A DNA stretch of 25,194 nucleotides from a virus (taxonomy: Duplodnaviria; Heunggongvirae; Uroviricota; Caudoviricetes): IMG/VR virus record IMGVR_UViG_2684622543_000001; one strand, 5' to 3'. How positions within the stretch are numbered: position 1 is the stretch's first letter; every line of letters starts with the position of its first letter. Positions 1 to 3,000 of this stretch are shown here, piece after piece. Position numbers: made by a program.

Positions 1-3000
1 GAACAGGAGGGACAGCTGATAGAAACAGAAGCCACTGGAGCACCTCAAAAACACCATCATACACTAAATCAGTAAGTTGGCAGCATCACCAGCCTTCTTG
101 AGGCTACCACCTGTTTTCAGGTGTCATTCAGACGTGATTTGCCCCAGATTGGGAAAGCACGCTTTTTTCTCAGCTATCGTCCTCTTATTTTGCCGTTACA
201 TTTCTTTTTGCATTCTAATGATTAATTTACAATAATAATATCGGTAATTATTGAGTAATAATAAATTAATTATTGCAAATGTAATTTAATTCCATCTTCG
301 CGTTATATTCCAATCTTTAATCTCCGCATGGAACAAGTTGCATGCGTGACTATATTAAGACGACTTATAACCACCAAAACATTTGCTTTGCAAGCAAAAA
401 CAGTGACCATTGACTCTAAGAAAATTCCGATCTATTGTTAGGGTCATCAAAGTTACTTAACAGTATTCCGAAATGAAAATACAAAGCAAGCTAATTGTCT
501 TATTAANNNNNNNNNNNNNNNNNNNNNNNNNNNNNNNNNNNNNNNNNNNNNNNNNNNNNNNNNNNNNNNNNNNNNNNNNNNNNNNNNNNNNNNNNNNNNN
601 NNNNNNNNNNNNNNNNNNNNNNNNNNNNNNNNNNNNNNNNNNNNNNNNNNNNNNNNNNNNNNNNNNNNNNNNNNNNNNNNNNNNNNNNNNNNNNNNNNNN
701 NNNNNNNNNNNNNNNNNNNNNNNNNNNNNNNNNNNNNNNNNNNNNNNNNNNNNNNNTTATTCTTAATCCAAGAACATACTCCCTACCTATAGCAAAATCA
801 CTTTTTTAACAAAAGAATAACGTATTTAGGTAATCATTACGAATTTACCCTATAGGTGCTACTGGCCATTCAATATCCGGTGCAGTTGATGTATCAACAC
901 GGTTCAGCAACACCCGATACTTTTTCCAAGCTTCCAGCAACAAGGTTTCTTTCTCCGTTGCGATCTCCAGATCCACAGCATCCTGAAGCGGCGCTATATG
1001 CTCACTGGCTACCTGCATCAGGCTGTTTTTTGTTTCTTCCGCCTCCCGGATCCGGAACAGTTTTTCTGCTTCCGTATCCTTCACCCAGGCTGTGCCGTTC
1101 CACTTCTGAAACTCCCCTTCCGGGGATAACCAGGTGACATTTTCCGGTAATGAGCCGAGTTCAGAAATAAATAACGCGTCGCCGGAAGCCACGTCATAAA
1201 CCGTTTTACCCCGATGATCTTCAACGAGATGCCACGATGACTCATCACTGTTGAAAACAGCCACGAAACCAGCCGGAATATCTGGCGGTGCAATATCGGT
1301 ACTGTTTGCAGGCAGACCTGTATGAGGCGGAATATATGCGTCACCTTCACCAATAAATTCATTAGTTCCGGCCAGCAGGTTATAAATTTTTATGGTCCGT
1401 GCTTGTTCACTCATTCTGAATGCCATTATGCGAGCCTCACAATATAGTTAAATGCGATGTTTTTGACGGTGTTTTCCGCGTTACCAGCAGCGTTAACGGT
1501 GATGGTGTGTCCATGTGAACCAATCGCAACAGAGTGCGTATGAGCACCAATACCGACAGTATGCGCGTGTGCACCCGCAGATGCTGCTGTGCCGGACAGT
1601 GAGTGTGTATGGTTTCCTTCTGAAGATGATTTACCTACCCATTGGGAGGTGCCACTGGTTAATGAGCCACTGATACCAACCTGATTAGTCCCGCTAACTT
1701 GAGTACTCCCTGCCGGAAACATTCCAGTAGGTTGACTCCCGCTATTCGTTCTGGGCCCAGTCTGACTATGTTGGTGGGCCCCAGCTGAACTTGTAGAGCC
1801 GCTCAGACTGTGCGTATGCGCCCCGGTGTTATTCGTGGATTTAGTGCCGTAATCAAACGACGATGTGGTTTTCGTCCCCAAATCCGTACTGGATGCGCTG
1901 GCGCTGTGGGTGTGCGATTTANNNNNNNNNNNNNNNNNNNNNNNNNNNNNNNNNNNNNNNNNNNNNNNNNNNNNNNNNNNNNNNNNNNNNNNNNNNNNNN
2001 NNNNNNNNNNNNNNNNNNNNNNNNNNNNNNNNNNNNNNNNNNNNNNNNNNNNNNNNNNNNNNNNNNNNNNNNNNNNNNNNNNNNNNNNNNNNNNNNNNNN
2101 NNNNNNNNNNNNNNNNNNNNNNNNNNNNNNNNNNNNNNNNNNNNNNNNNNNNNCCGAGGTGTAAAGCTGCGCCCACGGCGACCAGTTTGCGTCGGTCGTA
2201 TCCCGTCGTGAACGAATAAATGCCGGAGCATGAGCACCGCTTGTACCACTCCAGCCGATGAGTAACTCACCTTCGCCAACGGCTGTCATCCCTTTCAGGT
2301 GAATGATATTTCCATACGCTGTTGGATATCCGTTGTTATACACCTCGTATAACTCAAGACCTGCTGCCCCCTGCGTATTGTCTGTCAGCGCGGCTACCCG
2401 ACCTTTTGAAGCCAGATTAACTGATGATACTGCTGTTCCACCTGACGGTAGCGCCCCGATCTCTGATGCCGTTGGCTTATTTCTGGAGTTATAGTCCCTT
2501 CGCCAGCCAGGTGAATAATCTGTTCCGTGATTAATATAGGTAAACTGGGCGTTGGTTGTTCCGCCACCGCTGGATGTGGTCGGAGTGGTAATGCGGATCG
2601 TCATCGCTGACTTTATCCCCATTACTTCAATGACAGCTCCGGCGAGATGAATATTACCGCAGCCAGTATCAGTAATGATTTTATTATTGCCATAAGACCA
2701 GGAACCCTTGCACATCCAGTATGGATGGTTAAATGCTCCCTGAGAATCCAGCCACTCGATAAACTGTGCAGTCGTCCAGTTTCCTGTTGTTGTGCTTACT
2801 GACCCACCGAAGGCACGGCAGGCACCAATATTTTTCGTAAAGGTGTCTTTGCCAGGGATATCCGCACCGTTCTGATCTTTCTGCAGACGTTTCTCAGCAT
2901 TGTCATTGGCTGCTTTTACTGCCTTTGGCGTTGCCGCCAGCGTTTCAGACGTGCTGTTGGTCGCGCTGCTTAGCTGGATTATCCCTTTCTGTGCTGTCGT

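Follow-up and report, generated by a model that had tools for sequence, protein, structure and literature searches.

A candidate moron beside the tail fiber assembly gene of lambdoid prophages, with a small YncL-like membrane-peptide gene and a conserved sRNA-like 3' element

The stretch of DNA analyzed here, called the window below, is the 25,194-nucleotide IMG/VR virus record IMGVR_UViG_2684622543_000001, assigned to the Caudoviricetes. At its left end, between an IS1 end and the tail fiber assembly gene tfa, lies an AT-rich slot of 754 bases (91-844) in which an open reading frame (ORF) begins and soon runs into masked bases. With somewhat more confidence than doubt, we read this slot as an autonomous moron that encodes an inner-membrane peptide resembling the stress protein YncL, followed by a 3' RNA element that terminates the transcript and is possibly a small RNA (sRNA), the peptide acting on the membrane of the lysogen in the manner of YncL. 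The parts of this cassette, in window coordinates, are the following.

473-574, plus strand: small membrane-protein gene, MKIQSKLIVLLNIIIAFILFELLAQKFGLSTLF; codons 1-11 can be read and the others are masked, the end assuming no insertion or deletion within 507-574
675-758, plus strand: sRNA-like element made up of a 5' hairpin GUGGCUUACGCCAC, an unpaired linker and a Rho-independent terminator; masked save for its last two T, coordinates accurate to within 5 nt
410-438, plus strand: candidate sigma-70-like promoter TTGACT-N17-TATTGT (TTGACT at 410-415, TATTGT at 433-438), 35 nt upstream of the ATG
641-669, plus strand: possible internal promoter TTTACT-N17-TATCTT, recognized by eye (6641-6669 in the related sequence L001); masked in the window, coordinates accurate to within 5 nt
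313-372, no strand assigned: conserved upstream block, at -160 to -101 from the ATG

Three runs of N interrupt the window (507-756, 250 N; 1922-2153, 232 N; and 14635-14715). As a preliminary description based on the window alone had reported, the ORF starts with the ATG at 473, reads MKIQSKLIVLL and enters N at 507; the 97-aa ORF listed at 473-766 is an artefact of reading through N. The masked sequence was read from two IMG/VR contigs with exact flanks: L045, which has zero mismatches to the window over 1-506 and 757-1921, and L025, which begins inside the window and has zero mismatches over 91-506 and 757-1921. The exact IS1 junction is common to 13 IMG/VR contigs, and the IS1-slot-tfa arrangement is found at 97.5-98% identity in many E. 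coli genomes. In place of the 250 N the two contigs hold 245 nt, and 226 nt in place of the 232 N of the second mask; similarly, 60 of the 60 best E. coli matches span 634-635 nt versus 639 in the window. The discrepancy stems either from masks that alter length or from small insertions or deletions in the window; mask length is no safe guide to the sequence beneath.

In both L045 and L025 the ORF has 33 codons and a stop at the equivalent of 572-574. A divergent clade of the cassette, about 80% identical in DNA sequence, retains an ORF of 33 codons whose start and stop are unchanged (MKIQSKLIILLNIIFALILFKLLAQKFGLYTLF), the two forms being separated by 10 synonymous and 7 non-synonymous differences, which corresponds to a ratio of non-synonymous to synonymous rates (dN/dS) of 0.11 by the Nei-Gojobori method. 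Six sites vary among the main-type alleles, five of them synonymously and one non-synonymously (A24D), for a dN/dS of 0.04. The identical substitutions read in the other two frames lead to stops and to no synonymous excess, and 17 random substitutions would give at most five amino-acid changes and no stop with P = 6.5e-4. Every one of the approximately 80 copies inspected in E. coli genomes, IMG/VR and metagenomes, representing five protein alleles, is exactly 33 codons long, and one transmembrane helix is predicted at residues 7-25 of the peptide, the best 19-residue hydropathy window. On the basis of the intact copy in the divergent clade, the low dN/dS, the invariant length and the transmembrane window, it is very likely that the ORF is a real gene. 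Searches of Pfam and PHROG gave no usable match to the peptide, and no defense-system family in PADLOC-DB matched it, even at E-values up to 10. The exact peptide occurs just twice, unnamed, among some 15 billion predicted proteins, and no paper containing the peptide or the DNA or RNA strings of the cassette was found in the full-text literature.

The sole NCBIfam match of the peptide is to NF000537 (YncL), with E-values of 1.3e-5, 3.7e-5 and 7.5e-5 for three alleles and a gapless alignment from Met1 that places residues 1-28 on positions 1-28 of the 30 in the model. An independent YncL hidden Markov model (HMM) was made from 15 distinct orthologues from Escherichia, Citrobacter and Intestinirhabdus. 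Against it the peptide scores 21.6 bits, and the maximum among 20,000 composition-preserving shuffles with Met1 fixed was 12.8 bits; as the score exceeds all shuffles, the similarity does not merely reflect hydrophobic composition. Judged from these comparisons, homology to YncL is probable, and we consider the peptide a distant prophage-borne relative of YncL and not its orthologue, because it falls below the family cut-off and is encoded at a different locus. The preliminary description had called the ORF unidentifiable; as recovered from the two contigs, it encodes a peptide of 33 residues predicted to span the membrane once, whose full-length match to YncL is significant even if under the cut-off, and its reading frame is intact in the relatives, so that the refutation then envisaged, an unmasked slot with no intact ORF, does not apply.

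The two proteins are close in size (31 amino acids in YncL, 33 in the peptide), have the transmembrane helix at the same position (7-25) and share S5, K/R6, V9, L10, N12, A16, L19, F20, L22, K/R26, F27 and G28. They differ in that the gene for YncL (E. coli b4598, "stress response membrane protein YncL") is chromosomal, between patD and ortT in K-12, and has a Shine-Dalgarno sequence, AGGTGG, whereas the gene for the peptide is borne by prophages next to tfa, has no such sequence, encodes another C-terminus and is accompanied by a long conserved 3' RNA element. In pattern scans yncL was detected in chromosomes of Escherichia, Citrobacter and Intestinirhabdus alone, and the prophage-borne form in E. 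coli-type prophage DNA alone. When species-representative genomes, IMG/VR and metagenomes were scanned with degenerate patterns of the family, nothing more distant than yncL orthologues and the prophage alleles already known was obtained. YncL is a stress-induced small membrane protein that is cleaved in vivo by RseP (PMC10470546). Heat shock and minimal medium are among its inducing conditions. Its production depolarizes the membrane and lowers viability, and its sole reported activity is a sublethal membrane depolarization with nucleoid condensation. One IMG/VR contig classed as viral (L090) carries a genuine chromosomal yncL at 8490-8572, followed directly by an IS1 end, and is probably host DNA swept into a prophage call.

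Conservation along the cassette is sharply uneven. Between the two clades, identity is 90-93% at -160 to -101 from the ATG, 77-90% in the ORF, 53-57% in the spacer after the stop, 87-97% at +194 to +282 and 57-70% from the terminator to tfa. The best-conserved stretch is thus an element of approximately 85 nt that follows the stop codon after a spacer of approximately 100 nt; the preliminary description missed it because, its last two T apart, it lies wholly under the mask. The fold of this element is more stable than those of shuffled sequences (z = -6.8). Its linker, CUCUACUUUCAUCAYAUUUUGUACGUUUAUGUA, is almost invariant and unpaired, and its terminator, with a stem UCGCCAUGAAG/UUUCAUGGCGA and a U-run, is detected by a terminator scan in both clades. 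Both hairpins persist in the consensus fold, with changes that are one-sided and wobble-compatible only. From these features the element appears to have the architecture of Hfq-type sRNAs or of sRNAs derived from 3' untranslated regions (UTRs). Like such RNAs, among them the prophage-encoded Esr41, IpeX and DicF, it combines a 5' hairpin, an unpaired U/A-rich linker and a terminator with a U-tail at the 3' end of a small prophage mRNA; it differs from known sRNAs in having no Rfam match and in that the U-tail of the divergent clade is interrupted (UUUCUU). No family of Rfam 15 reached its gathering threshold for the element, the closest scores being 22.8 bits for MicC (threshold 90), 19.6 for Aar (60), 17.2 for rseX (50) and 15.6 for Esr41 (102).

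The candidate internal promoter TTTACT-N17-TATCTT, located just upstream, might serve as the element's own promoter: its -35 hexamer and the TAnnnT of its -10 hexamer are kept in the divergent clade, and it lies below the threshold of the promoter scan. Pairing of the linker with the yncL initiation region was no better than that of shuffled sequence. Two further candidates were discarded. A peptide read from the conserved 3' element (GTG-AYATLLSS...) has three synonymous and three non-synonymous differences, ends differently in the two clades and contains the terminator, and a helix between L001 6632-6641 and 6699-6708 takes the states G-C, G-U and A-U, yet two loci have A-C, and the consensus fold lacks it. 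As a separate observation, in an O169:H41 strain (L084 3001-3088) the approximately 88-nt 3' RNA element alone remains next to tfaQ, the promoter and the ORF having been deleted.

Upstream of the gene, the sequence TTGACT-N17-TATTGT is present at 410-438 as previously described. The divergent clade keeps the site as TTGACT-17-TATCGT, the hexamers fall in an invariant block of a four-sequence alignment, and the promoter scan also finds the site in L001. Farther upstream, the block at 313-372 reaches 90-93% identity between clades whose identity in the neighboring stretches is 53-80%. Neither a conserved hairpin, nor an ORF, nor a convincing promoter was found within it, and a 37-aa ORF that overlaps it has lost its ATG in two clades; its conservation could reflect a regulator binding site or an alternative promoter. 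A hairpin CGCATG...CATGCG upstream of the gene was dismissed as an element, as it is not retained in other clades. A perfect 12-nt inverted repeat, ACTATATTAAGA at 349-360 and TCTTAATATAGT at about 666-677 (L001 6349-6360 and 6666-6677), flanks the promoter and the ORF at a distance of approximately 305 nt; the idea that it bounds an invertible or mobile cassette was abandoned because the divergent clade has changes at 3 of the 12 positions of the right arm and no compensating ones.

Put together, the unit would consist of a promoter, the 33-codon gene, the approximately 100-nt spacer and the approximately 85-nt RNA element with its terminator, transcribed toward tfa. The prophage would express the peptide, which would insert into the inner membrane and, if it behaves like YncL, lower or modulate the membrane potential and so evoke envelope-stress responses; these in turn might alter the physiology of the lysogen or how permissive it is to other phages. 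The role of the conserved 3' element would be to terminate and stabilize the transcript, and the element may also be released from it, or transcribed separately, as a base-pairing sRNA. A bolder version, which we regard as doubtful, would make the cassette a dual-function moron in which one transcript yields both a depolarizing YncL-like peptide and a trans-acting 3' sRNA that reprogram the lysogen, for example by dormancy or phage-shock priming combined with control of host genes, or else a new toxin/RNA addiction module.

Several observations weigh against our interpretation of the slot as a moron for a YncL-like peptide. No Shine-Dalgarno sequence was found upstream of the ATG in either clade, which is the main point against the gene. 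The promoter-like sites, five in the scan versus 4.0 +/- 1.9 expected in shuffled sequences, do not by themselves exceed chance expectation. Against a YncL family cut-off of 35 bits, the peptide reaches 25.0, 23.5 and 22.5 bits in its three alleles and K-12 YncL itself 68.6. Covariation in the RNA is weak, with a single two-sided pair change that falls in the poorly aligned spacer, and with only two clades it cannot prove the RNA structure. That the window's own copy of the ORF is intact is an assumption; since the mask exceeds the recovered sequence by 5 nt, this copy could in principle be frameshifted. The weakest step is the proposed effect on membrane potential, which extrapolates, by analogy, from the overexpression phenotype of a distant relative.

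Other explanations of the same features have to be weighed. A small membrane protein in an autonomous cassette within the cargo slot of a lambdoid prophage is also what would be expected of a superinfection-exclusion moron, in which an inner-membrane peptide blocks the entry of an incoming phage genome in the way of HK97 gp15, itself a membrane protein. PMC11436027 cites HK97 gp15, with reference to Cumby et al. 2012, as a moron-encoded superinfection exclusion protein. We nevertheless think exclusion an unlikely function for the peptide, as it resembles no PHROG or PADLOC family, its sole detectable relative is a host stress protein, and 33 residues leave almost no extramembrane surface for a specific interaction. 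A type I toxin-antitoxin-like module for addiction or abortive infection, with the peptide as toxin and the sRNA-like element or an antisense RNA as antitoxin, strikes us as rather unlikely. The cassette is like TisB/IstR-1, ZorO/OrzO, Ibs/Sib and Hok/Sok in joining a small hydrophobic single-helix peptide to an adjacent small structured RNA on a mobile element, and prophage-borne type I systems are known (PMC12648545). The membrane depolarization and lowered viability that follow production of the peptide's relative YncL, the conserved structured RNA adjoining the gene, a minus-strand promoter-like site at L001 6664-6635 and the missing Shine-Dalgarno sequence, which could mean restrained translation, would all fit. 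Type I systems, however, have an antisense or complementary RNA and a long structured 5' UTR, and the cassette has neither: its RNA element follows the ORF on the same strand, and the 5' UTR would be short if the promoter at 410-438 is used, unlike typical type I toxin mRNAs. Moreover, the linker pairs with the initiation region of the gene at -8.3 kcal/mol, a value equaled or bettered by 368 of 1,000 shuffles, and no conserved inverted repeat connects the 5' region with the element, as the divergent clade does not keep the repeat of 12 nt.

The 33-codon ORF might instead be untranslated and the cassette an sRNA gene with a long leader. The higher conservation of the 3' element (87-97% versus 77-90% for the ORF), its classic Hfq-type architecture, the missing Shine-Dalgarno sequence and the weak full-length alignments to the MicC, rseX and Esr41 models, which reflect that architecture, all point this way. 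An RNA-only product is improbable, however, in view of the codon-periodic substitutions, the dN/dS of about 0.1 and the constant 33-codon length, a pattern that an untranslated leader would lack; the similarity to YncL is significant, and every Rfam score is far under the gathering threshold. Least probable of all, with very little to recommend it in our judgment, is that the slot is a decaying remnant, a leftover resembling the lambda b region that was broken by IS1, with the ORF and the hairpins arising by chance in AT-rich DNA. The presence of IS1 in the slot, the mosaic left part without supported genes and the promoter-like matches at chance frequency would agree with decay. On the other side, the cassette is intact in three cultured phages and approximately 820 genomes, the ORF is under purifying selection, neutral decay would not give such unevenly distributed conservation, and the IS1 insertion, 382 nt upstream of the ATG, leaves the conserved module untouched.

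The distribution of the cassette bears on its reading as moron cargo. It was found in 820-829 of 5,426 complete E. coli genomes (approximately 15%), always adjoining tfa and with nothing annotated beneath it, and the prophages that carry it sit at several integration sites (bio, ydfJ, zinT and sit); the divergent clade occupies a different prophage end, adjoining the sit operon. In a distant-mode search of 50,697 phage records the segment was matched in four only, those of the cultured lambdoid phages mEp332, PhiR70_1 and ev099 (two records). None of these is lambda, and the alternative that the preliminary description named as a refutation, that the ORF is the remnant of a known gene of the lambda b region, gains no support; genes of that region include ea47, ea31 and ea59. 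In the three phages the cassette lies between tfa and a gene for an AraC-family regulator, beyond which come remnants of insertion sequences and the integrase end. The earlier placement of the slot at a cargo position of lambdoid prophages thus holds, the segment in mEp332 and ev099 being close to the int/att end, while the multi-gene virulence or defense system that such a position might have suggested finds no PADLOC, PHROG or Pfam match. The cassette resembles described lambdoid morons (lom and bor of lambda, gp15 of HK97) in its terminator and candidate promoter, its atypical composition, its location between conserved modules at the tail fiber end and its exchangeability, and other prophages carry different cargo in the same slot. 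The described morons are far larger and have no sequence relation to it; the cassette adds a conserved RNA element, and its expression from the prophage is putative.

We regard the cassette as a small single-gene moron with a putative function and not as a new class of system. No annotation pipeline calls it, yet approximately one in seven complete E. coli genomes carry it, as do at least three lambdoid phages in culture. If the peptide is indeed a relative of YncL borne by phages, a small host stress protein would seem to have been copied by temperate phages as cargo for lysogenic conversion. The cassette also contributes a candidate new prophage sRNA. Both ideas can be tested directly, mEp332, PhiR70_1 and ev099 being in culture and E. 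coli MP1 being a carrier strain.

The boundaries of the slot are formed by the following features.

1-90, minus strand: IS1 end (the terminal 90 bases, left inverted-repeat end, reversed), the left bound of the slot
91-261, no strand assigned: left mosaic piece, very AT-rich, with no supported gene
845-1426, minus strand: tfa, tail fiber assembly gene, an ORF of 193 amino acids that all relatives list as tail fiber assembly protein

The contrast in composition noted in the preliminary description is confirmed, with a GC fraction of 0.275-0.35 over 101-500 versus 0.5-0.65 in the tail fiber region to the right. On the left, the last letters of window positions 1-90, ...cagtaagttggcagcatcacc, are the terminal repeat of IS1 (GGTGATGCTGCCAACTTACTG) in reverse complement, and a transposase of the IS1A family is annotated directly left of the slot in relatives. 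IS1 is not present at the corresponding site in the intact phages mEp332 and ev099, and at the slot it is a break in the original phage sequence; in the window's lineage it lies beyond the conserved module. On the right, tfa is convergent with the cassette and forms the boundary. Rightward from 845, tfa and all the genes that follow it lie on the minus strand: a tail fiber gene encoding 1,031 amino acids, then lom and J, and after them the remaining genes of a lambda-like late operon as far as those for the terminase.

The left piece has no ORF with a Pfam or NCBIfam match; it includes a hypothetical ORF of 55 amino acids, truncated by IS1, that is annotated in ev099 only (gp28). In other prophages this piece is swapped for three unrelated types of upstream sequence, with the switch upstream of approximately -185 from the ATG. 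The ydfJ-inserted prophages (L003 4563-4760, L004 3563-3760) have another upstream type, with an annotated hypothetical protein of 65 amino acids (WP_001421370.1). Copies of window positions 91-175 (85 nt), 94-100% identical, are found where unrelated prophages end (L081 3001-3086 and L080 3001-3086); they adjoin three genes for NleG-type (DUF1076) effectors in a prophage of the enterohemorrhagic E. coli strain EH031 and a different tail fiber set in strain 042. This short piece looks like a shared boundary of an exchangeable cargo locus.

In mEp332, the 3' portion (approximately 60 nt) of a tRNA-Ser-like sequence, which we take to be serU-like, lies on the minus strand between the gene for the AraC-family regulator and the cassette (L006, approximately 2328-2390) and is probably a relic copy of an attachment site; the window lacks it owing to the insertion of IS1. 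In L082, a remnant of approximately 100 nt of the 3' end of tfa (2864-2963) is located just upstream of the divergent-clade cassette and points the same way as the full tfa at 3568-4176, so that the cassette is bracketed by direct repeats of tfa 3' sequence. Such repeats may show how the cassette moves between prophages.

Within tfa itself, the Rfam family IS009 (RF02111) matches positions 885-1083 on the minus strand over its full length with 218 bits, wholly inside the coding sequence; the "sRNA" family may be nothing more than a conserved part of tail fiber assembly genes. The adjacent tail fiber ORF (1426-4521, minus strand) contains several hundred residues of low complexity rich in Ala, Ser and Thr (...AASSASSA...), and the length of this gene varies among close relatives, with values of 2,916, 3,279 and 3,414 nt.

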